Shown: one piece after another, positions 745-50,107 of the stretch
Numbering within the stretch: position 1 is the stretch's first letter
Layout: each line of letters opens with the position of its first letter
Virus record (IMG/VR): IMGVR_UViG_3300005253_000262
Span: 1-64,000 of that record
Length of the DNA: 64,000 nucleotides
Origin: a virus
Strand: one strand, 5' to 3'
The notes under the pieces: generated by a model
The model's database searches: none
What the model was told of the DNA's origin: nothing
The model's input: only the letters and a program-made list of their open reading frames with translations
Translations under genes and position numbers: made by a program

Positions 745-1518
745 ATGGCTAGATACTCACCGATTGCACCACTTACTTTACTGGAACAGTTGCATGAGAA
801 AGAAATCCTAGGCAACTACCTCCTATTGCTAGCGCACGATGTTCTTGAGTACCCACGAGGATACATCGACTTAATGGACCATATAGGAGTCATGGAGGAC
901 TTCTATCCTGAAGAACGCTTCATCATCATGGACAATAGCGTAGTCGAGCTCTACCAGCCACTTCCACCCGGCAAAGTCATTGAGGCCGCAAATCTGGTAG
1001 AGGCTAACTGCATCATGATACCAGATGTACTAGGTGACTTTCAACTTACGCAGAAACTAGTGATGGAGCACGCGTCGCTTCTGCGTAACTGCGGCTTCCC
1101 CTTAATGAAGGTCCCACAAGGATCTAACGCGGCGGAGCTAGTACAGTGTGTTGACTGGCTTCGCGATTACCTTGAAGTCCCCAATGGTGATGTCGACTAC
1201 TGGGGGATTCCTCGCTGGATAGCTAATCAAGAAGGTTCGCGTATCCCTATCATCCAGTACATTAATGCCAAGTGCGAGGATCCTAAGATGCACCTCCTTG
1301 GTATGTCTGCATATCTCTCGGATGACCTAAGATGCACAAAGCTGCCTGGAGTTATGGGAATCGATTCCGCTAATCCCCTTGTAATGGGGTTTGCTAGAGT
1401 AGATCTATCTACAACCTCTGCATATGTACATATGCATCGTGGTAACTATTGGCAACGCACACACCCCGATGGCCCAGTGATTCGTAACGTGGAGCATATG
1501 CATGAACTCGTCAGCTGA
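745..1518 (+). CDS. TGT/DpdA-like TIM-barrel protein (putative 7-deazaguanine DNA-modification enzyme)
   Basis: Ordered motifs IMDNS, IPDVLGD, VPQG, WGIP, HLLGM and GIDSANP resemble the tRNA-guanine transglycosylase motif series (DS, D, QG, G, HLLG, D). The gene lies next to folE. Confidence 0.55.
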   Translation: MARYSPIAPLTLLEQLHEKEILGNYLLLLAHDVLEYPRGYIDLMDHIGVMEDFYPEERFIIMDNSVVELYQPLPPGKVIEAANLVEANCIMIPDVLGDFQLTQKLVMEHASLLRNCGFPLMKVPQGSNAAELVQCVDWLRDYLEVPNGDVDYWGIPRWIANQEGSRIPIIQYINAKCEDPKMHLLGMSAYLSDDLRCTKLPGVMGIDSANPLVMGFARVDLSTTSAYVHMHRGNYWQRTHPDGPVIRNVEHMHELVS

Positions 1519-3913
1519 AGAGCTCCGCTACATATGTGACCATGCTCCTCAAGATGTATGCGATGATTGCCCCTTCGGGGGGCCGAAGGTAGGCTCGAAG
1601 GGGGATCCTGCATCTCCCATTGTCTTCGTTGCTGAGTCACCAGGCTTAGACGAGGTACGTGATGGAGAACCGTTAATAGGCCCCACGGGTAAGGTCTTTC
1701 ATAAGTTCGTTCCCGACGATGGAAGTGTATATGTCCTCAATGCAATGGAGTGTTATCCTGCACGTGTGTTAAAAGAAGGCACAGAAGGGACAAGACGGAT
1801 GCAAGCCGCAGCATATAGCTGCCGTGATCGTCTCCTGCAGAAGATTGAAGCATACCCACACCGGCTCATCGTAGCGATGGGTAACTCCGCAGTACGATCC
1901 CTTACAGGCATCTGGGATCTCAAGATCACAAAGATTCGTGGCCGCCTTATTGAGTCATACCTCGCAGAGCTCGGGATCATGCCAGTGATACATGTAGCTG
2001 CGCTGATGAAGGGGACGGGCTCATTTCGCGAATGGCGCGAGGACATCCAATACGCTATGGAGCTCGGGCTAGGGGGCAGCCCTAGACCCCACTTGAAGGC
2101 AGACGTACGAATTATCCCTGACGATGTAACCCAAGGCTACGTCGATGCCCTCTTTGAATTTCTAACCTGGAGCAGCAATGAGCTTACGGCAGATATTGAA
2201 ACGACTGGTTTCAGTCACATCAACGACCGCATCCTATCGATTGGCATTACCCCCAGGAATGACCTCGGAATCAGTTATTGCTTCTATCCTCATCACCTAC
2301 CGCTTCTTAGGCCTCACTTGGAAGCGTCAACTATACAGTGGTGCTGGCACAACGGAAAGTTTGATGTTAAGTTCCTTAGAGCAGCGGGAATTAAAGCTCA
2401 CGTTGACGACGACACAATGCTCATGTCGTATACCCTGGACGAATTGGGAGGGATTCACGATCTGGAAACAGTGTCATGTGACGTGCTCAGCGCCCCTGAT
2501 TACAAATACATGATCAAACCCTATTTACCTAATAAGGATTCATCCTATGAACTGGTACCACCGCAAATTCTGGCAGAGTATCAAGCGATTGATACCTCGA
2601 ACACCGCTCAAATCAGGCCAATACTACGTAACCGTGTTAGAAGTGACTCAGCACTCGAAAAGCTCTACACCAGAACACTCCTACCTGCGAGTGAGATGCT
2701 CACTGAAGTCGAAGAAGCCGGAATCTGCACCGACCCCGAACGACTAGACGAGAACGAGGTCTACTTCGCAGACATGAAGGCGGAGATTGGGTCAGAAATT
2801 AACGAGCTAGTTGGCTACAACATCAACGCAGGATCACCTAAGCAGGTTAGTGAGCTCCTCTTTAAGCGGATGCGCCTCCCGAATAGGAAGAAGGGATCCA
2901 CAGATAAGTCCGTAATCGCCAAGCTACAGAAACAAACAGAACATCCTATCTTTGCGTTGATCCTGAAGCACCGCAAAGCCGTCAAGATGTACGGCACCTA
3001 CGTTAAGGGGTTTAAGTTATGTGTTGATCCTATTACTAACCGAATACACGCCACGTTTCTTGTACATGGCACTCGAACAGGCAGACTCGCAGCTCGTGAT
3101 CCTAACATGCAGAATCCGCCTCGTGATCCTCAGATTCGAGGGACTTTTGTTGCTGCTGAAGGGTATGAGCTTGTTGAAGTGGATCTCTCTCAGGCGGAGC
3201 TACGTTCTTTGGCGGCACTCTCGGGCGATGAAGCGCTACTCGAAGTATATAGAGGAACTGGAGATCTCCACACCGACCTCGCAAACTTCCTCTTCCCAGG
3301 ATGGGATGTGCGAGACCTCGCCCCAGAAACCCACCAGGAAGCATACGAACAGAGGGTGAGATGCAAGAACGTGAACTTCGGCATTACCTACGGTATCACG
3401 GAATTTGGTCTCCAGGAGCAGATCGGTGGCACACTTACGGAAGCGCGAACGATGATACGCGGGTGGTTCTCGAAATACCCTGGAGCAGCAGCCTTCATCA
3501 ACAAATGTAGGCATGCACCACTAAGCAATCAGGACATTACAACTTGCTTCGGACGCAGGAAGAGAGGTGGGATAGTATCGAGGGAAAACATGCGCTTCTT
3601 ACAAAACGAAGCGGCAAACTTCCCACATCAGTCGATAGCGTCCGACATTACGCTACATGCGGGTATTAGGTGTTGGAGACCATTACAGTCTATGGGGGTT
3701 AGGATCGTGAACCTGATTCATGACGCTCTTCTAATGGAAGTCCCAATCACATCCGATAACCATATCCGCCACGAGGCTATCGTGATGGTAGCGAAGGAAA
3801 TGCGCCAGGTACCTATAGACTGGGGTATTACACAAGTACCATTCATCGCCGAGGGTGAGTATGGTCACCGCTGGGGAACACTCAAAGCATACAAGGAGAA
3901 TATTTATGAGTGA
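1502..3913 (+). CDS. polA: family A DNA polymerase with N-terminal family-4 uracil-DNA-glycosylase-like domain and 3'-5' exonuclease
   Basis: UDG-4: CDDCPF, VFVAESPG, GPTGK, MGNSA, IHVAA. Exonuclease: DIETTG, HNGKFD, YQAID. Polymerase: motif A DLSQAELR, motif B RCKNVNFGITYG, motif C IHDAL. Confidence 0.95.
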   Translation: MNSSAEELRYICDHAPQDVCDDCPFGGPKVGSKGDPASPIVFVAESPGLDEVRDGEPLIGPTGKVFHKFVPDDGSVYVLNAMECYPARVLKEGTEGTRRMQAAAYSCRDRLLQKIEAYPHRLIVAMGNSAVRSLTGIWDLKITKIRGRLIESYLAELGIMPVIHVAALMKGTGSFREWREDIQYAMELGLGGSPRPHLKADVRIIPDDVTQGYVDALFEFLTWSSNELTADIETTGFSHINDRILSIGITPRNDLGISYCFYPHHLPLLRPHLEASTIQWCWHNGKFDVKFLRAAGIKAHVDDDTMLMSYTLDELGGIHDLETVSCDVLSAPDYKYMIKPYLPNKDSSYELVPPQILAEYQAIDTSNTAQIRPILRNRVRSDSALEKLYTRTLLPASEMLTEVEEAGICTDPERLDENEVYFADMKAEIGSEINELVGYNINAGSPKQVSELLFKRMRLPNRKKGSTDKSVIAKLQKQTEHPIFALILKHRKAVKMYGTYVKGFKLCVDPITNRIHATFLVHGTRTGRLAARDPNMQNPPRDPQIRGTFVAAEGYELVEVDLSQAELRSLAALSGDEALLEVYRGTGDLHTDLANFLFPGWDVRDLAPETHQEAYEQRVRCKNVNFGITYGITEFGLQEQIGGTLTEARTMIRGWFSKYPGAAAFINKCRHAPLSNQDITTCFGRRKRGGIVSRENMRFLQNEAANFPHQSIASDITLHAGIRCWRPLQSMGVRIVNLIHDALLMEVPITSDNHIRHEAIVMVAKEMRQVPIDWGITQVPFIAEGEYGHRWGTLKAYKENIYE

Positions 3914-39521: not shown

Positions 39522-40574
39522 TCACCTCTTCCTGATAATCAGTCTTTGCAGAATCTCAACAGCCACCGGATCCTCAAGGGCCCTATCAAGGAGTTCGCCT
39601 TCTTCATCGACGACGGTGCCTTCGGACGAGGCTCGGTTGGACTGTGCAATAGTGCGGAAGGTGAGTTCCAGTGATTCTCCACTTCGATCCTCGCTACCAG
39701 CAGCCGCAGGACCAGCAGCTGGGAGCCCTGCTGAGATACGCTCCAGCGAGGTTGTCTGCTTCAGAAGGTCGATTGCCACTTTCGGCGTCATCAACTCCCA
39801 GAACTCCTCGTCACCGTTTATGTACTGCATTATCTTGTGACGTATACGCTTGGCATCGATGTAATGTTCATCCTGCGTCTCGATTGCGCGGATTTCCTGA
39901 CGACGCCTATGTTGTGCAACACGAAATAGATCATATGCACGTGCCCGTAGTCCCCAGTAGTATACATGGTAGGCACGTTTATAGTGTTCGATGATGGAGA
40001 GTAACTCAATATCGTTCGCAGCTGGGTGAAGCATAGCCACGAGAGAGGAGATACTACGTGTACCGGCAGCAGCCTTGCCAGGGTCTCCCTCGTCTTCTGG
40101 ATCCTCAGGATCCCCCGAGACGCCAGCACGTCCGCACGCCATCTGAAGGTACGTCTCAAATGCACGGAAGATATCACTGGGTTCACTGTCCAGCTGATAC
40201 CAGAAAGCTTGGCCATTCTCGAATGCGGGGAACCCCTCATCATACTGCAGTGGTACGAACGCATTAGGGAGACTCGCAGCGAGGAAGCCCGCAACTCGGT
40301 ATTCCACAGGAAGCGAAGGGTCGCCCCGAGCCTCATCCTCGGGGGAGAGAGATGACGGAGATTCACTTGGCTCGGGGGACCCCACTTCGCTTGGGCGTGG
40401 TAGTGCGTGTCCGTTGGTGTGTGTAGGCTTGTAATTGTGGAAAGGCAACAGGTCGACGCGGTAGATACCGGTGGGGAGACCGAAATCGTTCAACGGCAGC
40501 TCTCCGGCTAGCGCTTTGATCGCCTGAACCTGGAGGACCTCCGCCTCCGCACCTACATTTACTTCGATGTCCAT
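39522..40574 (-). CDS. putative terminase small subunit
   Basis: W.Q...E....F.AF..Y...RS...W..RA.AYD pattern seen in phage TerS-like HTH proteins; first gene of the late arm. Confidence 0.55.
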   Translation of the reverse strand: MDIEVNVGAEAEVLQVQAIKALAGELPLNDFGLPTGIYRVDLLPFHNYKPTHTNGHALPRPSEVGSPEPSESPSSLSPEDEARGDPSLPVEYRVAGFLAASLPNAFVPLQYDEGFPAFENGQAFWYQLDSEPSDIFRAFETYLQMACGRAGVSGDPEDPEDEGDPGKAAAGTRSISSLVAMLHPAANDIELLSIIEHYKRAYHVYYWGLRARAYDLFRVAQHRRRQEIRAIETQDEHYIDAKRIRHKIMQYINGDEEFWELMTPKVAIDLLKQTTSLERISAGLPAAGPAAAGSEDRSGESLELTFRTIAQSNRASSEGTVVDEEGELLDRALEDPVAVEILQRLIIRKR

Positions 40575-40580
40575 ACATCT

Positions 40581-40610
40581 ATTATATAACACTATTTGTC
40601 GGCATGTCAA
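40581..40610 (-). promoter_or_regulatory. consensus sigma70 promoter at head of late arm
   Basis: TTGACA-N18-TATAAT, 6 nt before ATG 40574. Confidence 0.8.
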
Positions 40611-40624
40611 GTATTAGGCAACTA

Positions 40625-40718
40625 CACCCTGTGCCTCAAGGTTCTAGGCTACGGATAAAAATATTTTTAAGGACATACCTGGGCCTCAAGGTTCTAGTCC
40701 GGAATAAAGAATATTTTT
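40625..40718. repeat. two imperfect ~45-bp direct repeats, 50-bp period
   Basis: gcctcaaggttctag...taaa..aatattttt at 40633 and 40683. Confidence 0.8.
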
Positions 40719-40786
40719 GAGTTCCTGATGTCACATAACTACATGATTTCATTACGTAAACTAAAATTATGAGTGAGTGTGAAACG

Positions 40787-40845
40787 TTGACATTCATTTC
40801 ATAATGAACGATGATTATGAATGTTAAGTAATAGTACTTAACATT
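40787..40845 (+). promoter_or_regulatory. TTGACA box plus palindromic operator-like site
   Basis: TTGACA at 40787; perfect inverted repeat aatgttaagta-atag-tacttaacatt at 40820-40845. Confidence 0.6.
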
Positions 40846-40861
40846 TAATGAGGTTTAGACT

Positions 40862-41059
40862 ATGTCTCAAACTAAAAAACTTACCAAGTCTCAGAAGTTC
40901 AACGTAGACTCATTCTCAACGAAGTCAGCAAAGATTCGTTACCTAACTAATCTTGATTGGACTCGATCTGAGATTTCGAAATATCTGAACATTCTTTACC
41001 AACACGTTCGGAATGTTCAGATCACACCAGTGAAGAATCCGACTGAACAAAAGAAGTAA
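40862..41059 (+). CDS. small HTH-like DNA-binding protein (YQHVRNV family, copy 1)
   Basis: TKSAKIRYL...TRSEISKYLNILYQHVRNV; gaggt SD; own terminator. Confidence 0.75.
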   Translation: MSQTKKLTKSQKFNVDSFSTKSAKIRYLTNLDWTRSEISKYLNILYQHVRNVQITPVKNPTEQKK

Positions 41060-41068
41060 AGTAAGACT

Positions 41069-41102
41069 GAGACTCACTCTAAGTTAGAGTGAGTCTCTTT
41101 TT
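41069..41102 (+). terminator. intrinsic terminator
   Basis: gagactcactcta-agt-tagagtgagtctc followed by TTTTT. Confidence 0.9.
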
Positions 41103-41142
41103 GTGTTTATGATTCGAGTAGTCCTAGGGGCGGACCGGTCGA

Positions 41143-41167
41143 CTACTACAACCCTCCCAAGTGTCAA
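41143..41167 (-). repeat. TTGACA-N13-TAGTAG motif (copy 1 of 6)
   Basis: Other copies at 41321, 45221, 45253, 45647 and 48940. Confidence 0.8.
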
Positions 41168-41214
41168 ATTTGAAACCTACTAGTCTCTCCACATAGGACA
41201 TGTCGAGTGTGAGT

Positions 41215-41238
41215 GTGGAGGTGGAGGTGGAGGTGGAG
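41215..41238 (+). repeat. (GTGGAG)4 tandem repeat in a C-poor tract
   Basis: gtggaggtggaggtggaggtggag. Confidence 0.9.
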
Positions 41239-41866
41239 TGAGATGTGACATGTAGGGTGGAGTGAGGTGATGACTAGTTAGGTGATGTGAAGTTAACTAG
41301 GCCTATGGTCGACCCGTCTACTGCTACTAACACCCCAAGTGTCAAATTCAACCGCCCGGACTAGTAGGTCCACACGTAACTATCGACCACCCGCGCTAGC
41401 GGTAGACCCCCTCCCGGCCCTGTCTACTAGTACGCCTGAGGAAAAGTTTTGGACATTTAGGCACTGGGCACCGTCAAAAACGTACAGGTCCATGAACATC
41501 GAACGTGGATCGAGACTTAGCATAGCAGTCCTCAAATAGGAAACTAATTAAACTAATTGATACCAGTTCCAGGTCTTCTCGTTACAAATCAACGAGTTAA
41601 GTAGTTTATTAAATTAATTAGTTTTTGCTTATTCTACATATACTACTGTTTAATATGTATATATTATTCCTACTACTTATACGGTCATTATTCCTTTATA
41701 TACATTTCTATCTTGACTCTTCTAAACAAAAGAAATCGTAATTAAGTTAATAAGGCCAACTAATCGTCGTGTCCGGTCGCCGTCCTGAGGGGTCTGATCA
41801 AGAAACATGTCTCTACGGCGGGTCCTACGAGTTGACTCAAAACCCATCGATTAAATGCATAGGCGT

Positions 41867-41927
41867 AATTAATATAAAATGACTCTTGATACTAATCCCT
41901 CTGGTTCTATATAATATATACTATGAA
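41867..41927 (+). promoter_or_regulatory. strong early promoter, duplicated unit copy 1
   Basis: AT-rich UP element aattaatataaaatgactc plus TTGATA-N18-TATAAT. Confidence 0.8.
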
Positions 41928-41991
41928 AGAATATCTTTAACCAGCCAACAGGAGAACGATCATCAACAGGTTACATAATCGCACAGCAGAC

Positions 41992-42249
41992 ATGCAAGCC
42001 TCGTCAATACGGGTAACACCGGAAGCACGGGCAGCTTTGGATAGGCTACCAGCATACGTAATGGTAAGCCGTTTCCTTCAACACTTCGACCTCATCCCAT
42101 GCGACCTTGGAAACGTCGCAATCATGGTCTCCGAGTCTACGCGTCCTCAGAATAGGATGCACACTCGCTCGATCCGCATTATCAACCTAGTCAACGCGTA
42201 CATCGAACAGCTCGAAGTTGTCGAAGCGTACGACATCGCTAACCTATAG
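41992..42249 (+). CDS. hypothetical early protein
   Basis: Lies between a promoter and a terminator. Confidence 0.55.
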   Translation: MQASSIRVTPEARAALDRLPAYVMVSRFLQHFDLIPCDLGNVAIMVSESTRPQNRMHTRSIRIINLVNAYIEQLEVVEAYDIANL

Positions 42250-42268
42250 CTAGGTACACAGTCGAATG

Positions 42269-42300
42269 AAAGCCCATTCTTCGGATCGGGCTTTTATTTT
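42269..42300 (+). terminator. intrinsic terminator
   Basis: aaagccc...ttcg...gggctttt followed by a T tract. Confidence 0.75.
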
Positions 42301-42335
42301 GCGTGTCGTCGGGTCCCTATGGAGGGCCCTGTCAC

Positions 42336-42396
42336 AATTAATATAAAATGACTCTTGATACCGGCCCCCTAGGTTCTATATAATATATATTATGAA
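42336..42396 (+). promoter_or_regulatory. strong early promoter, duplicated unit copy 2
   Basis: Near-identical to 41867-41927; TTGATA-N18-TATAAT. Confidence 0.8.
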
Positions 42397-42614
42397 CAAA
42401 TATTATATATATATACCAAGCGGTACAACTAGGAGAACTGTAATGAGCAGTAATGATAAATGTTGGAAACGTCGACCGCACGATTGGAACGAACATGATG
42501 AGACCAGGACACATCTGATCAAGAAGTGTTCGGTCTGTAAAGGTCTGCGATGGGTCGCACGTCGAACCATCGTGGTCACGTTAACAGCTCGACAAAGCAA
42601 CTAGGAGAACAGAT

Positions 42615-45149
42615 ATGAAGTTTGACGATGAAACAGGTACGCTAACGATCAACGAGTTTGAACTACACGACATGGTCGCAGACATGAACGTGAACATTAA
42701 CCCAGGCCGAAAGGACGCCGAAGCGACCGGATCGCTACTTGAACGTATCAAGATCATTCCTAAGGAACCAAACGACTTTACGCCCGGCTTGGTAAACAAG
42801 TACGAGGTCCTATTGAACAATCTGATCCTTATGACCATGATGATCGATAGTGACATTCATGACGACGCGGAATATACCTGTAGCTAACTAGCGGGTCAAC
42901 TAGGAGAATATGATGAATGAACCAACAGTCTACCTGCAGGGACCTGACGGGGAAGAGTTTACATTGAAAGTTACATCGCCGGATCCTGACGATGGAACAT
43001 TCTGTGCGCATCTTCCAAAGAGCGAGGTCGCACTGGCCGAGGAATGGTGGATCAGGATCGTACCAAACGAGAGCGGGCGCTAGCGCGGGCCCATCGGTAG
43101 AATAGGAGAACAGATATGACAACGCAACGTACATTTTATTGCCCATGCTGTGGTCAACCAGCAGACGCTATCCAGGTAGACGTACAACATGGCGACGTAG
43201 GAGATGAAGACGTGACATGGAAACGTGTTCATCTGGAATGTTTAGGTAAATGTCCAGTTCTTTGGTCATGTGTCGACATTCCTAACGAATGTTTGAACGA
43301 CAAGACCCCAACAATTCCACTAGATGTAAGAGTCGACACGGTAGATAACCGGGATAGTCGTACAACATGGCTCTGGGTCAACGGCGACAAGGACTACGTT
43401 GAGATCGATCCCGTCGACCTGATCGAGAACATGATCGAAAACTGTGTCCACGTCATAACGGACACGGGGCTTTGTCATACCGAGAACCAGGTGACCGCAG
43501 ACGAGTTACAGACCGCTTTATCAATCCTACAGCGCGTCTAGTCGCTGTGGGCGACCCGAGGAGGAGTCAACATGGCATATTATAATGTAGTCGTAACGAT
43601 CGTGGCCGACGATGAAGAAGAGGCTGAAGGAGTAGTCGAACGAGGCATCGATAAACAAGGCTATGCGGTCTTGGATATAGTGGCAAGTCGTATTAAGGAC
43701 GATGACTTGATTAAAGAACTGGACGCCCAGGATGTAGCGTTCTAACCGGGAGGAACAACTATGAAATACGTACATATAGACAGTAATGGGTCAATGAAGA
43801 TTCGTGACCACCAACTACCAGACTGGAAATACGGATGGGTCTATAAGGTACCAGACGACTTCCAGTTCGAACTAGGCTCGGCCAATGCAGAGAACCGTTT
43901 GTACTTTTGCGAACTACTCGAGAATGATCCTCGGGCGGAGCTAATATTCGACGGCGAGGTAGAAAGAACAACCACGAACTACAGTGATATAAAAGGACCC
44001 AACACGTTGGCCGAGTTCTTAATGAAGGACTTGAGTACCGAAACGTTGTTCAAGATCTACCAGGACAAGAACAAAAACGACTTGGGCGAGTTGGACGCTA
44101 TGACTAATGACCCAGCGGAGCTGTTAAGAGAACACATCAGCTACCTGTTCTATACGGCCAGTTACAATCTGGTCATGAACATCCACTACAAATTAGGGCT
44201 CTTGGACGAGGAGACTGTTGAACAGATCATCAACGAGTAGGAGGAACAACCATGAATAAGACTATCACAGAGATATACAACGAGTTAAGTACTGACGAGG
44301 AGGTCGGAGACAGGGTGAATAATCTCGTAAGTGAGATCGTTACTCGAATCGTCAGCGTTCCTGAGATTCGTCAAGCGGTCCTGTTGGCGGCCCTGAGAGT
44401 CGACGCGTATATCAAAGAGGACAATCCAGACACAATAGGCGACGTCCCGTTCTATATGGTCTGGAACCATATCATGTCCGAGAAGGACACATTGGATTAG
44501 GAGGAGGAACGAACATGAGTAACGATCAACCATACTTCAATCTAGTGATCTGTACCATCGATGGCACTGTTGAAATTACAATCGAACCGATCGCCTTACA
44601 TGACGAGGACGGAGGAGACTCGTACATGATAAGAGTGACCAATGAGGAACAGACAATCGTTCAAGAAATGGTCGTCAATGCGGACAAGATTAATTTCGGT
44701 TAACCGGGAGGAGTAGTAATGGATTTTGATAAGTACTATGACGAAGACGCGACAGATTGCGATGTTATACGTGAAGTGTACAAAGGTCTTCGACCTGAAG
44801 TCAAGGATCGTGCCCATAGGGATATTCGACATGCACTCTATCGAGAGGTCATGTCGAAACGGGCACAAATGGCCCAGCTACTAGGCTGGTACGGACAGAC
44901 AATGTAAGAGGAACAATCATGACAATTAGAAGATGCATAGTCCTTGACTGGACTACAGATGAACAGATTGAAGCGATAGGTAGACTCTTAGACAAGGAAT
45001 GTAAAAAGATCTATCCACTCTTCAGTGCCGACCAAGACAAAGGGTTCGACAATCCCGAACATGTACCTGACAAGGAGTTAGAACTCTTAGGTAATGGTCT
45101 TACGAATTTATGTTGTGACCTGGGAGTCGACGGATACGAGATGTCATAA
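42615..45149 (+). other. cluster of small acidic early ORFs (42615, 43116, 43761, 44252, 44515, 44719, 44919 and others)
   Basis: Tightly packed, co-oriented, each behind an aggagaac/gaggaaca SD; no recognisable motifs. Confidence 0.7.
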
Positions 45150-45878
45150 GAACATGGACAACAGAATTACAACTGGGCGCTACAACTATGCACATGAACG
45201 GTGCTAAAGGCGGCCCCGGAATGCTACAAACCGCGCAAGTGTCAAAAATGAAACACTACAACCCTACCAAGTGTCAAAAAAGGAGAACGATCATGAACGA
45301 AGAGGAATTTGCAAAGTATCTACATGGTCTTATCGAGCAGTACATCGAGGACCTTTGTCTACTTGATGGAGAGACGGTCGTACTCTGCGTAAGGGGCGAA
45401 GAGACTATGCTAGATGGTCTCGATAGTGGGTGGTACTCTGCTCCTAAGTAGTGAGCGTGCAAACATGAACATTCCAGACAACTTAATGGAACGTATGGTA
45501 CAGATGTACCGAATGTCTGTTTGGGACCACTGTGGACGTATGTACATGCCTATCTATGATTACGATGGACAGATCTGTGCATACGCTCGGGCCGAAGAGG
45601 CGCTAGAGATCTGGTGTGATGATCTGGCGCTTCGGACGGCCCTAGAACACTAAGGATCGCGCAAGTGTCAAAATTCATAAACGAACGAGTGCCCTTCAGA
45701 ATATTTCATATGGAGTGTTGTGGTCACATGCTCTGTTGGGTCAACCCAAGATTCCCTACACACTGTCCAGAATGTGGTCAAACAGTATACCCCACGATCA
45801 AGTCCTGGGTAACATTATCCGATCCTAATGCTCACCTACGATTCAAAAACGGACCCTAAAGTGACTACGAAATGACAC

Positions 45879-45908
45879 TTGCTATGACACTAGATGGTTC
45901 GCTATAAT
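45879..45908 (+). promoter_or_regulatory. sigma70-like promoter
   Basis: aaatgacacTTGCTA-N18-TATAAT with ggttc, similar to the 41886/42355 promoters. Confidence 0.7.
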
Positions 45909-46482
45909 ATATCATACTGAATAGATATCTACAAGAGGACAAAGCATGAGACTATCGGATAAGGAAATCTTCGCACTAGGCAACTGCTATACAGCATTTG
46001 GATATGGCGACATAGATGGAGCAGTGCATTGTATTCTGCCTAGTGTCGATTCTGACACCGACGTATGGTCAAATGGCGTATTTCAATTGCTCGCGGACAG
46101 ATTTCTCAATCTATCTGACGACCTAAGCGTGGATAATTCAGATATACAAGACATTGCCGAAACGTACAGATTAGTAATCGAGCAGTGGCTTAAGGAGATG
46201 GACATTGATCTTGGACTAAACGAATTGGAGTACTAAACGAAGAGGACAAAGCATGAAAACGATCAGCAAAGCACTAATGACGATGACACGCCAGACGAAA
46301 GGCGCTGTCGTATACGACAATGTCAAACCGAACAACGGTGGTCAAGCAATTACCACCTTGTACCTTCGAAAGGATGGGCTCACAGAGCCGTATCCTGGCA
46401 GTATCGAAGTCACAGTCGCTGTGGACGACCCCGACGAGGGCTAGAAGCAGCATAATCCATGGGCCTATAAGGAGGCACAATC

Positions 46483-46752
46483 ATGGGCAAGCAAGCAACA
46501 GCGCAGAAGCAAGACCCTGCGGCAACGCAGAGCACGAAAGAGTCAACCGACAAGACTGTCGAGTTGTCAAAGGCACAGCAAGCGGCAGTCGCGAAGCTGG
46601 ATACGGTCAGCGCCAGGATCCGATATCTGGACGCGGAAGGCTACAGCCGTTCGGACATCACGAAAGCGATCCCGAACGCCAAGGGCAACAAGCTCTTGTA
46701 TCAGCACGTCCGTAACGTGTTGATAACCCCAGTCGGCAAAGCGTCAAGCTGA
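46483..46752 (+). CDS. small HTH-like DNA-binding protein (YQHVRNV family, copy 2)
   Basis: TVSARIRYL...SRSDI...LYQHVRNVLITPV; aggagg SD. Confidence 0.75.
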   Translation: MGKQATAQKQDPAATQSTKESTDKTVELSKAQQAAVAKLDTVSARIRYLDAEGYSRSDITKAIPNAKGNKLLYQHVRNVLITPVGKASS

Positions 46753-46762
46753 GCCAACGGTT

Positions 46763-46806
46763 GGAACCCATTCGGACTCGGGTGAGGCGGGTGGGTTCCT
46801 TCTTTT
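46763..46806 (+). terminator. intrinsic terminator
   Basis: ggaaccca...tgggttcc followed by ttctttt. Confidence 0.7.
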
Positions 46807-46826
46807 AACCAGTAACGGAGAAGAAC

Positions 46827-47075
46827 ATGCAAATCAAACGTACCTTTGCGGTCGTACCATTATCAAAGGCGAGTGGGCACGGCGTGGTCCGCGACGTCGA
46901 GCTATTTGGTACAGAGGAGCGTGCCATAGCACATGCCAGACGCTCTCTGGGCCTTGACACAACGCGCACTGGATTTGTCGTCTACCAAGCGACAACACTC
47001 GTTCAGTGGGCGACACAGCCAATCGACGTGTGCACGATTGGCGACGACGGGGAGATACTACCATGCGGCGACTGA
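46827..47075 (+). CDS. hypothetical protein (tandem paralog A)
   Basis: Aligns by eye with 47063-47311. Confidence 0.65.
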   Translation: MQIKRTFAVVPLSKASGHGVVRDVELFGTEERAIAHARRSLGLDTTRTGFVVYQATTLVQWATQPIDVCTIGDDGEILPCGD

Positions 47076-47311
47076 GACTGATGTACAAGATCCACGGCCT
47101 TAATACGGCTCGGGGCATGGCCCGTAGCGCGGGCAACGACACCTTCTACGAAACAGAAGAGCAGGCGCTAACGGCGGCCCGGAGCTATGTATCACTACCG
47201 AGTTGCCATGATGCAATGGTCATCTACAAAGCACATGTACTTGTGCGGCGTTCCCACCCACCAGTCGAGGTCCTTTCGATCTCACACGACGGAGAGACTA
47301 TCCCGTTGTGA
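47063..47311 (+). CDS. hypothetical protein (tandem paralog B)
   Basis: Aligns by eye with 46827-47075; gggag SD before ATG 47063. Confidence 0.65.
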   Translation: MRRLRLMYKIHGLNTARGMARSAGNDTFYETEEQALTAARSYVSLPSCHDAMVIYKAHVLVRRSHPPVEVLSISHDGETIPL

Positions 47312-48845
47312 GATGACACAACATAGTCCATTAGGATCCTCACGGAATGCACTGCGTCTAAACAGGATCACAGAGTGGTGGACTATTTTATGTCAACCAA
47401 GTGGAGGAGAACATGAACGCAAAACACACGTACAGAGTCACGCACAGGAATGATCTACGGGGGATCAACGTGAGGGAGCTGATCATGCTACACCCCTCAC
47501 CTGTAGAGACCAACGAAGAGCGGATCGCAAGACAAGCACGTAAGGAACCGCATCCGAAGGTTATTGCTGCTCAGGAGAGGTTCGAGGAACTTCTCCAGAA
47601 GCGGACGAGAAGGAGTCACAAGAAATGACGTACAAACTTCATAAACTGAATCAGAACGGTACGAACGCTCAAGGGGTCCCACTAGGGCTCGTCAACTGGA
47701 TGTGTCTCAACCGTCTGCACACGATGCCTAAGAGGGACAAGTTGCGCGATAAGCACTTTACTGTACCCACAGAGGCACCTAAGGTACTGAGTATACCACA
47801 ACGTCGACTTCGTGAACGCGAACCTGCGATGTTCTATAAGATGTACCACTACTACATGCTGTGGGCAGACCTAGCACTAGCTAAACGCGGAGAGTTCAAG
47901 AACGAGGGCCTTATCACGTTCAATACGCGCGAGTGGAGGAGACACCAATGAACTACCACATCTGGCATAAGGGTATAGTCATAGAGTCATTCTCAGCGGA
48001 CAATGACGACAAAGCTCGTGCATACGCTCGACAACGCTATACCCATTTCGCCAAATGCACCGACGACGATGACAAAGTCATATATACAAAGACACCAATG
48101 ACTGAGGATCGACAATGGTTGTTGGACCACTGCATTGAATGTGATGGTGCAGAGATACCGCAAGCATGGTGGGAAGACGCCGAGGCTCACAAGAGCCTGG
48201 GCCATGTGACCATCTCCGGGCCGCGAGGGCCAAATGGCTCCTTCAAGCGCATAACTCCGACATGAACGTTAGCGGCGATGACATTGTACTAATCGTAGGG
48301 GTCCTATACTGGGGCTACTTTCAATTGGCCCCGCTCTGGAGGAAACGGCAATGAACAGAATCTCGAACAAACTAGCAGGGCGACTGCTAGATACGGATCT
48401 AGCGAACTCTTCCTGGCGAGAGACCTACCCAAAGGCGTATGAAGACTTGTTAGAGTATCGTCAGGACATCGAACAATCATTTCGACAGATCCTGAGTGAC
48501 CACTTTGACAGGGTACGAAAGGAACTGCTTGAATAACCTGGAGGAAGCGGTAATGGAGAAACGTGAAGTAAGACAGCTTCGCATAGGTGATCGCGTATCA
48601 CTCAAATACAGCCTAGGCATAGGTAAGATCACTCGGATCGTGTGGTCCTATCGCGAATATCGTTACGGTAACCTACCTAAGGATGGTATGTACCCGATGA
48701 TTGAGTTTCGGGACATAATGACTAAGGGGAAACGTTGGGCGACATACCTTGCTATTGCGGAGTGGACGCACGTGAAGCACTGGTAAGCGATCAAGCGCAG
48801 GCCCGTAGTACATAACGATAAAGGCCCACATAATGCGTCAGCTTA

Positions 48846-48881
48846 GGTCAAGAGAATCCTCCCTCTCTTGGCCTTCTTTTT
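48846..48881 (+). terminator. intrinsic terminator
   Basis: aggtcaagag...ctcttggcct followed by tctttttt. Confidence 0.7.
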
Positions 48882-48985
48882 GCCGTTCAGAACCTCAGGC
48901 CTCGTTATGAAGCTGCTAGTCACAATGGCCAGCCCCCCAATGCTACAGATCGCGCACAGGTCAAAAATTTACCCCAAAATGCATC

Positions 48986-49015
48986 TTGAAATGCCCATAT
49001 GTGATCCTATATAAT
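48986..49015 (+). promoter_or_regulatory. sigma70-like promoter
   Basis: TTGAAA-N18-TATAAT. Confidence 0.75.
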
Positions 49016-49049
49016 AGAGATAATAGAAAAGTGATGAGAGGAGACTGTT

Positions 49050-49454
49050 ATGGTAAAGTTCGTCGACATTGACCCTAAAGACATCGATACATCGCGTATT
49101 GGTCGTCGCGGGCGGGTATCGTACCCGATTCTTAAGGCATTCCTGGAACGCAACACTAAGGTCAGTAAGCTTGACCTCACAGGGTTGGATAAGAACCCTA
49201 CGTACCTGCGTTCTGTTCTTGATGCATATGCCAAGAGTCACAAGATGCCCATCAAGGTGTTCTCTGCTAATGGAGAGATCCACCTGATGCGTCTTGACCT
49301 CGACAACGAATGCAAGCCTATCAAGAACTGGGAAGAGGCGTTGCAGACTACAGAGGGAGCTGCTGGACTCGAGCGCGATCTGGAACCCGTCCCCGTCAGT
49401 GCTGCAGAGGTACGGCGTCGCGGCAAGCAAGAGAAGGGTAAGACTACGAAGTGA
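49050..49454 (+). CDS. basic hypothetical protein, possibly nucleic-acid binding
   Basis: gaggag SD; GRRGR basic patch; first gene after the promoter. Confidence 0.6.
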   Translation: MVKFVDIDPKDIDTSRIGRRGRVSYPILKAFLERNTKVSKLDLTGLDKNPTYLRSVLDAYAKSHKMPIKVFSANGEIHLMRLDLDNECKPIKNWEEALQTTEGAAGLERDLEPVPVSAAEVRRRGKQEKGKTTK

Positions 49455-50107
49455 GCAAACTCCTTGTCATATGCGCCAAGCGCTACAACGGTCACGAGTT
49501 GTGGACTCTCCTGGATGTTGTAGTCCATCGCGGGCATTCCTTCGAAGTAGTGTCGCAGGAGCTACTCATACGCGACGAACTAACTCTACGGCCAAATACG
49601 ACCGAACGCACAGTCTACACCTTAGACGACCATAACGTAGCCAGAAACTTTGATGCTATATGCATCGTATCAGGTAATATGGCAGACACGGAAGCTTATT
49701 GGGATGATGCTCATGTAGCCGGGCTACTGGGGGCATTCAAAGGTGCAGACAAGGTCATAGCAGCTATTTGCTGCTCAGTCCCTACATTAGGGCCTATTGT
49801 CAAGGGAATCAAGGTCAGCTATTACCCTCTTATCCGCTCACGCCACAGACTACAATACTATGGCGCGATCCTGCAAACAACCAGCCTCACTGTCGATGGA
49901 AGGTTCGTAACGGCAGAGAATCAGATGATGACAGAGATGTGGGCCGAAGAAATATGTAACGTGCTCAAAGGCCGGCCCCCTCAATACAAGATGCACGATA
50001 GTGGCTTTGTCCCCAAGGGCTTAGAACGCAAGATGAGTCCAGAGGTCAGAGCGGCTATCGACGAAGACCGAGGCTACGAAATGGTAATGCGTAAGGACGA
50101 ACCATGA
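49451..50107 (+). CDS. DJ-1/PfpI family protein
   Basis: N-terminal E (GHEL), FDAICIVSG, IAAICCS nucleophile elbow and VDGRFVTA. Confidence 0.8.
   Translation: MSKLLVICAKRYNGHELWTLLDVVVHRGHSFEVVSQELLIRDELTLRPNTTERTVYTLDDHNVARNFDAICIVSGNMADTEAYWDDAHVAGLLGAFKGADKVIAAICCSVPTLGPIVKGIKVSYYPLIRSRHRLQYYGAILQTTSLTVDGRFVTAENQMMTEMWAEEICNVLKGRPPQYKMHDSGFVPKGLERKMSPEVRAAIDEDRGYEMVMRKDEP

Follow-up and report, generated by a model that had tools for sequence, protein, structure and literature searches.

A three-block, single-orientation intergenic element in an uncultured siphophage, tentatively read as a factor-dependent promoter

Why would a phage carry, on one strand of its early region, a set of promoter-like boxes with a spacing that is invariant and too short for the host polymerase? 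The question is raised by the 64,000-bp stretch analyzed here (the window), bases 1–64000 of the 72,474-bp IMG/VR record IMGVR_UViG_3300005253_000262, in which a first-pass annotation pointed out six minus-strand pairs of hexamers, TTGACM and TAGYRK, each separated by exactly 13 nt. Sigma-70 promoters need spacers of about 16–18 bp. We find that the pairs are real but belong to a longer element of three blocks, which is conserved in its orientation and internal spacing among related phages and which we tentatively read as a class of minus-strand promoters requiring a phage factor.

A pattern scan of the window recovered the six matches to TTGACM-N13-TAGYRK, all on the minus strand and all at the places first reported (Table 1). 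In 100 dinucleotide-preserving shuffles the pattern occurred 0.14 times on average and twice at most, so that six matches were never reached; over the entire record no further match was found (forward 0, reverse 6), and a backward-read control gave none on either strand. The spacer length of 13 is special, as had been proposed: when the pattern was loosened to TTGAC[AC]-Nx-TA...[TG], eight matches were found on the minus strand at spacer 13, and zero to three in each of the remaining combinations of strand and spacer (9–21 nt). The sequence said to be common to five of the sites, TTGACACTTG, indeed occurs five times on the minus strand and not at all on the plus strand. A weak seventh site suggested at about 41477 did not hold up, as it shares TTTGAC alone with the others and has no match to the six-site profile even at E≤100.

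Alignment of the six sites with their flanks, together with a profile search, defines an element of about 55–63 bp composed of three blocks, A, B, and C. Thus, the 25-bp box pair is not the unit itself; the pairs are contained in five ~63-bp copies and a half copy. In minus-strand order, the element consists of an A/T-run, block A, a partly conserved spacer, block B, variable bases, and block C. Block A is a T-run plus GAC (T-T-r-GAC-C/A in the family, TTGACA in this phage), block B is GTAG following a fixed gap of 12–13 nt, and block C, located some 5–9 variable nt after block B, is GGGCCGYCC followed by YTAG. Searching with nhmmer placed the five full copies and the A+B half copy in the window, along with one weak, possible C-only copy (Table 1). 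Copies 1 and 2 form a direct repeat (D1, 82% over 38 nt), and the half copy lies in tandem with copy 3, 32 bp upstream of it.

We used the 362-aa protein encoded at the head of the late arm to collect related genomes, which retrieved 4 viral and 33 metagenome loci at 37–81% identity; the metagenome relatives typically share about 50% at the protein level. The element profile, iterated over this genome and the 37 related loci, gave 50 hits at E≤1, compared with 0–2 hits in each of five block-shuffled controls. Orientation is nearly absolute: 48 of the 50 hits run along the late arm, i.e., as the window's minus strand; a block-C regular expression over about 248 kb matched 20 times in this orientation and once in the opposite one; and in a second set of 77 loci, 13 of 14 element hits share the same orientation relative to a small gene for a helix-turn-helix (HTH)-like protein. 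Related genomes hold several copies each (for example, loci L145 and L130), one of which always lies ~510–850 bp upstream of the 362-aa gene, and all copies are intergenic or at gene ends. A+B-only and C-only copies occur among the relatives as well, and tandem A+B copies are 30–74 bp apart. The position of copy 5 is syntenic with L130 2786–2877, beside an orthologous early promoter. A strain variant of copy 5 (run X4), found by comparing assembled contigs from four DNA runs of two studies, keeps blocks A and B and has a block C nearer the family consensus, within indel-rich flanks.

To define what is conserved, we aligned 23 of the 25 full copies by the TA with which block B starts, leaving out one copy at the edge of a locus and another in which no TA could be placed. 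Information is highest at the T-run, at ACC and GTAG, and at several G's of the spacer. Block B begins with TA in all 23 copies and with TAG in 21. The gap between the “xAC” of block A and TAG is 13 nt in 16 of the 23 and 14 nt in 5 (the window copies), with exceptional gaps of 12 nt and 11 nt occurring once each; expressed as a spacer between hexamers, this corresponds to 13 bp in 6/6 window sites and 12–13 bp in relatives. The distance between B and C, by comparison, is flexible (5–9 nt, mode 9). The element, its orientation, its conservation, and the fixed A–B spacing are observed.

While the A–B spacing and TAG are kept in relatives, the hexamers are not kept as sigma-70 boxes, a mixed outcome for the comparison by which the first-pass annotation proposed to judge its reading. 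In 18 relative copies, the “−35” position reads TTAGAC, CTGGAC, CTGTAC, and the like, with the TTGACA of the window becoming TAGACC or TGGACC, and the match to TTGACA averages 2.44/6 in the N13 register and 3.5/6 one base rightward (N12). The “−10” box of the relatives is TAGGGG, TAGCGG, or TAGGGA; its match to TATAAT averages 2.28/6, compared with 3.4/6 in the window, and a T is found at its sixth position in 2 of the 18 copies and one base further on in 12. Neither a 16–18 bp spacer nor conserved TTGACA and TAnnnT boxes, the two marks of a sigma-70 promoter, are found. Since the hexamers diverge in this way, the TTGACA/TAGYRK boxes are, on the evidence of the alignments, a peculiarity of this phage overlaid on a different, longer motif. 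The lesson is that sigma-70-looking hexamers in one genome can mislead, and that the relatives shifted the conserved signal elsewhere.

Table 1. Positions of the element copies, the box pairs within them, and neighboring features in the window.
Feature	Position	Strand	Exact TTGACM-N13-TAGYRK match	Remarks
Full copy 1	41112–41174	-	41143–41167	nhmmer E=8.9e-14
Full copy 2	41288–41350	-	41321–41345	nhmmer E=1.2e-13
Full copy 3	45189–45252	-	45221–45245	nhmmer E=1.1e-15; in gap after gene 44919–45149
Half copy (blocks A+B)	45253–45279	-	45253–45277	nhmmer E=0.028, model positions 7–33 only
Full copy 4	45616–45678	-	45647–45671	nhmmer E=2.4e-14
Full copy 5	48908–48970	-	48940–48964	nhmmer E=2.7e-13
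Possible C-only copy (weak)	42313–42340	-		nhmmer E=0.18, model positions 31–58
Sigma-70-type promoter	40581–40610	-		12/12, TTGACA-18-TATAAT; head of packaging/structural arm
Early sigma-70-like promoter	48986–49015	+		TTGAAA-18-TATAAT; back to back with copy 5
Perfect hairpin, 14-bp arms	41069–41097			terminator of small plus-strand gene; 15 nt from copy 1
Terminator-like hairpin	48845–48874	+		34 nt before copy 5
65-aa four-helix HTH-like protein (predicted)	40862–41059	+		IRYL..RSEI..YQHVRNV; convergent with copy 1
Paralog of 65-aa HTH-like protein	46483–46752	+		tblastn 46% identity, E=5e-12

The first-pass annotation had all six pairs pointing against the early genes, most of them shortly upstream of rightward promoters, which are found at 41886, 42355, 45879, and 48986. 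By codon score, every gene between 42 and 51 kb lies on the plus strand, and therefore four of the sites do point against early genes; the remaining two sit in the 1.3-kb non-coding region between the two arms of the genome. Proximity to promoters applies to the site at 48964 alone, which is directly upstream of the sigma-70-like promoter at 48986 (21 bp between the TTGACC of copy 5 and the TTGAAA of the promoter). The site at 45671 is ~200 bp from the promoter at 45879, those at 45245 and 45277 adjoin a ribosome-binding site where a promoter is absent, and those at 41167 and 41345 lie in the divergent 1.3-kb region. As for the individual copies, copy 1 faces the small HTH-like gene from its 3′ side, with the late operon beyond it; the half copy adjoins the ribosome-binding site and ATG (45296) of a plus-strand gene; copy 4 extends over the final codons of gene 45414–45653, stop codon included; copy 5 is located between a plus-strand terminator and a plus-strand promoter; and the possible C-only copy is just upstream of the promoter at 42355.

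A promoter-like reading fits these features best because the A–B distance is rigid and the B–C distance flexible, an A/T-run lies upstream, block B starts with TA, the site is intergenic, and the orientation is strict; and because no conserved RNA structure is found on either strand, we read the signal as sequence. Our leading interpretation, which we put forward tentatively and hold at somewhat less than an even chance, is that the element constitutes a phage-specific class of minus-strand promoters that needs a phage factor and fires against the early genes toward the late operon. We infer its promoter nature, its strand of action, and its need for a factor from the sequence. Among the options listed by the first-pass annotation, a promoter usable only with a phage factor is thus the one we favor as a hypothesis. 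Host-type promoters across these genomes have spacers of 16–18 bp, mostly 18, and therefore a box at 12–13 bp would be unreadable by the same form of the holoenzyme. In the proposed mechanism, block A would act as an upstream activator or sigma box, too near block B for region 4 of an unmodified sigma-70; melting would take place at block B; and block C would represent the start site or the initially transcribed region. Only after being redirected by a putative phage early protein would host RNA polymerase use the element. The resulting transcripts would oppose the early genes and the small HTH-like gene and head for the packaging and structural operon, which on the minus strand is downstream of every copy. 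The outcome would be to help in switching from early to late expression.

Two C-only copies are preceded by sigma-70-like −10 boxes, namely TGGTATGAT located 8 nt before block C at L141 151, and a minus-strand TATATT/TATTAA 8–10 nt before block C at window 42313, a distance at which block C would sit at or near the transcription start. Furthermore, in six places block A lies 14–52 bp from the −35 box of an early-strand promoter and points away from it, a back-to-back layout that is, by analogy, that of divergent promoters. We regard as doubtful a more far-reaching version, in which this would be an undescribed three-part promoter class (upstream box at 12–13 bp, GTAG melting box, GGGCCGYCC start region), host polymerase would be captured by a phage early protein not detectably similar to sigma factors, AsiA, or MotA, and the antisense copies would form a switch by silencing the early region and feeding the late operon.

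Several observations weigh against a factor-dependent promoter. Block B is a poor −10 box in relatives, making recognition by sigma-70 region 2 doubtful. Pfam and PHROGs searches of 32 and 45 early/replication-arm proteins revealed neither a sigma factor nor an RNA polymerase nor any known transcription factor, and six-frame searches with Sigma70_r4, AsiA, and MotCF were negative or below cut-off (for PF09010, a single 11-bit hit below cut-off, E=0.026, like those in unrelated control genomes; for PF09158, no match), leaving no homolog of AsiA or MotA. The late arm owns a sigma-70 promoter with a 12/12 match, so extra promoters are not obviously needed, and the distal copies are not followed by a same-strand gene. 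At L130 2786–2877, block C is ~37 nt from block B, so block C is a module of its own and not, in the strict sense, an element of the start site. In 14 of 25 copies, a hairpin whose stem has ≥7 bp follows within 130 nt in the copy's own direction; nine of these hairpins are early-strand terminators read in reverse, and 8 of 25 copies have, within the same distance, a T-run hairpin in their own orientation, which would stop such transcripts early. Finally, the tandem A+B half copies suit cooperative protein binding equally well.

Protein binding is also the basis of the alternative we consider a serious one although on balance improbable, that the element is not a promoter but a composite site for one or more phage DNA-binding proteins, which would repress, insulate, or activate early promoters or roadblock read-through. 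This reading would account for the modularity of the copies (A+B-only, C-only, and tandem A+B), for the placement of block A upstream of early-strand −35 boxes described above, for the 9 of 25 copies that lie just beyond an early-strand terminator, and for the partial dyad symmetry apparent by inspection in block C (GGnCnGnCC). The candidate binders are the small four-helix HTH-like proteins, represented by 2–3 paralogs per genome: in about 10 cases, among them the window, L157, L160, L007, L145, L148, and L134, a gene of this family is located 50–110 bp from a copy of the element, and the 65-aa gene is convergent with the proximal copy in most relatives. The AlphaFold2 (AF2) model of the 65-aa protein (pLDDT, the predicted local distance difference test score, 86.6) predicts a four-helix HTH-like domain with Foldseek neighbors among GerE/LuxR-type and transposase HTH proteins (TM about 0.5, none at E≤0.001), and a profile of the family (S..IRYL..RSEI..YQHVRNV) gave no significant Pfam or PDB sequence hit. 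However, the family extends far more widely than the element. Relatives are encoded in 82 viral stretches, of which 80 were kept as 77 distinct loci (L164–L240), and just 3 of the 77 carry the element at E<0.01; the family and the element are therefore not tied together, and the 65-aa protein is a candidate regulator with a weak tie to the element. In addition, many copies lack a nearby promoter (window copies 1–3, the half copy, and the copies at L145 4127 and L157), an operator does not require a strict single orientation across 8 kb, and the element lacks overall dyad symmetry. The copies at window 45277, L145 4127, and L157 adjoin an early gene's ribosome-binding site and have no promoter close by, arguing both against a pure operator of early promoters and against a plus-strand promoter; the latter, with GGTC-T/C-AAAWT as −10 box, was rejected as a general reading since transcription would start in or after the Shine-Dalgarno sequence in these three copies.

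The remaining explanations appear less probable still. A strand-specific site acting at the DNA level, either a localized nick site of the T5, phiKMV-like, or tf type or an oriented signal for replication, packaging, or DNA entry, is in our judgment unlikely. It would explain a multi-copy element confined to one strand, clustered in one part of the genome, and kept in position in relatives, and the phage encodes an HNH endonuclease and an endonuclease VII; moreover, copies 1 and 2 are beside an A/T- and repeat-rich, origin-like stretch (41541–41720), near the gene with a weak match to a small terminase. Contigs of two runs from two studies terminate at 41308–41310, within block C of copy 2, one of them with a 24-letter loose end, which could represent a recurrent fragment end or, equally possibly, a branch of the assembly graph due to strain variation. 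Yet known nick consensus sequences are 7–18 nt long, as opposed to a three-block element of 55–63 nt with a variable B–C gap; the 8-kb spread is unlike a pac site or iterons; and the confinement to intergenic DNA points instead to gene expression. If the element were nevertheless a nick or binding site, it would extend poorly understood strand-specific marks to a new phage group. A signal at the RNA level, whether a plus-strand processing, decay, or translation signal in early mRNA or a minus-strand seed of antisense RNAs pairing through block C, we consider quite unlikely. C-only copies do lie 0–20 nt upstream of early-strand Shine-Dalgarno sequences (L007 589, L130 6626, L145 1557 and 2026), the plus-strand complement of block C (CUAAGGG/CUAAGGA) is itself Shine-Dalgarno-like, and some proximal copies are followed by a T-run hairpin that would yield an RNA of 50–70 nt; but RNAalifold on seven copies predicts two minus-strand pairs and no plus-strand pair, with no covariation, the sequence from block C to the hairpin is not conserved, and hairpins drawn around block C do not keep the same register among copies. 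With no Rfam hit at E≤1 over 40000–50000 and no ARAGORN gene, these results rule out a structured RNA or tRNA-like element. Very improbable, lastly, is the view of the sites as ordinary weak sigma-70 promoters or RNA polymerase decoys, with TTGACA-N13-TAGYRK taken literally. TTGACA is perfect in five of the six window copies (TTGACC in the sixth) and TAnnnT is present in four of the six, but the boxes vary in relatives, where the T-run, ACC, GTAG, and block C are conserved instead, and the promoters of these genomes do not have 13-bp spacers; the decoy that the first-pass annotation had offered as an option is weakened because its TTGACA box is not conserved. By-eye comparison with consensus sequences for sigma-54, extracytoplasmic function (ECF)/sigma-E, sigma-28, the RfaH ops element, and Bacteroidetes-type promoters showed spacings or boxes that do not fit.

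Judged by the loci collected here, the element belongs to a clade of uncultured siphophages of ~70 kb from a marine-sediment group. A megablast search of 40500–49500 against 50,697 phage records gave no match, and no relatives of a 134-aa protein (49050–49454) were found in viral contigs. A search of 185,579 species genomes with the 362-aa protein retrieved no relatives and hence offers no lead to a host or prophage. Among cultured phages, only Brevundimonas phages are related; this protein and the terminase share 25% and 35% identity with theirs, respectively, and their gene order differs; the element profile has no hit in 18.8 kb of their sequence even at E≤10. The exact pattern TTTGACACTTG-N9-TAG matched at least 117 stretches of viral contigs, and all but one of those listed hold a single match, which we took as chance. 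The element family appears undescribed, the literature having been searched for analogues and not for the motif.

The genome in which the element resides is siphovirus-like and organized into two arms. The minus-strand arm extends from 40,610 down to about 10,000 and encodes the 362-aa protein, which has a weak match to small terminases, followed by endonuclease VII, large terminase, portal, capsid, tape measure, and tail proteins. The plus-strand arm runs from about 41,900 to the end of the record and resumes from base 1, with small genes of no known family followed by ligase, a primase-helicase-like protein, an SNF2 helicase, DNA polymerase A, and ribonucleotide reductase; the DNA polymerase A (1502–3913) carries an N-terminal domain of the uracil-DNA-glycosylase superfamily. 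The promoter heading the late arm is conserved in L007, L008, and other relatives, as is the position of the ATG of the 362-aa gene (40574) ~7 nt past the −10 box, which suggests a leaderless mRNA at the head of this arm. Its 18-bp spacer illustrates the promoter geometry read by the host enzyme. All five strong sigma-70-like promoters (41886, 42355, 45879, 48986, and 40610) have an 18-bp spacer to TATAAT, in the context cTATATAAT in four and cTATAATAT at 45879, and the promoters of relatives are alike, with GACTATTGAyT at the −35 box. Just upstream of the promoter at 40610, two direct repeats with 50-bp spacing (40628–40721, CCTGkGCCTCAAGGTTCTAG ... AAnAATATTTTTnAG) may constitute a binding array for a regulator.

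Between the arms, the perfect hairpin next to copy 1 is followed by a T-run on the plus strand only, and one X4 contig skips 61 bases (41061–41121), including this terminator hairpin between the small gene and copy 1. GTGGAG is repeated four times in tandem at 41215–41238, and the A/T-rich stretch at 41541–41720 holds a 17-nt inverted repeat and two occurrences of AAACTAATT; L007 has ATAGAATAGTAA-like repeats at the place equivalent to the 41215–41720 repeat region, which has the appearance of a replication origin. At 45710–45859, 39 nt after copy 4, lies an open frame of 49 aa with two CxxC pairs (zinc-ribbon-like), which lacks an obvious Shine-Dalgarno sequence and has no match in Pfam or PHROGs. 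Beyond the window, the record contains 7-deazaguanine synthesis genes (genome 68374–69063, 70445–72157, and 72120–72467, equal to L161 5374–6063, 7445–9157, and 9120–9467): QueC (E=3.9e-53), a radical-SAM protein that is likely QueE and is split by an intein with a LAGLIDADG domain, and a GTP cyclohydrolase I fragment truncated at the record end. The phage DNA may carry a modified guanine, which could influence how proteins read the G-rich element.

How does the element compare with known systems? Within this phage, it resembles a canonical sigma-70 promoter in its A/T-rich upstream run, TTGACA, and TA-starting second box; it differs in having a 13-bp spacer in place of 16–18 bp, in boxes that vary in relatives, and in block C, which has no counterpart there. 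The lambda pO promoter, whose OOP RNA runs against cII, is a cis-antisense promoter of a temperate phage. As in lambda, a leftward signal is located just past a small regulator gene and its terminator, on the 3′ side, and is directed back into that gene; here, this placement is the one conserved for the copy closest to the 65-aa HTH-like gene. Unlike pO/OOP, the element is present in several copies per genome over 8 kb and is not a sigma-70 promoter.

The nick sites of T5, phiKMV-like, and LUZ24-like (tf) phages, as described in PMC3517423, share with the element its one-strand, multi-copy occurrence and its conserved positions among relatives. In that account, tf has 14 sites of TACT/RTGMC, all on the top strand, the consensus is CGACxxxxxCCTA/CTCCGG in phiKMV-like phages and R/GCGCRGG in T5, and the function of the sites is unresolved even in model phages (PMC3517423). 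In addition to their shortness and lack of a three-block structure, these sites differ in lying within genes as well as between them.

The closest geometric parallel is provided by the T4 middle promoters, in which, according to PMC2988021, a phage box placed 12±1 bp away from the −10 box can replace the −35 box, an excellent −10 box being required. The differences are clear. The upstream box is TTrGACC here and TGCTTtA in T4; the element has a third block; its second box is TAGGGn in relatives and far from an excellent −10 box in both the window and its relatives; no homologs of AsiA or MotA (PF09010 and PF09158, six-frame) were found; and the copies face against the neighboring genes. What the two share is an upstream box held with equal rigidity at 12–13 bp from a box starting with TA, within the 12±1 bp of T4, where this distance is too close for region 4 of sigma-70 and these promoters are used only after phage early proteins have remodeled the host polymerase (PMC2988021). 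If the factor-dependent promoter reading is true, the element would provide a sequence handle to sort early from later genes in such genomes, and it would represent a second, independent example of the sigma appropriation geometry of T4, built from unrelated sequences and proteins in phages of uncultured sediment bacteria.

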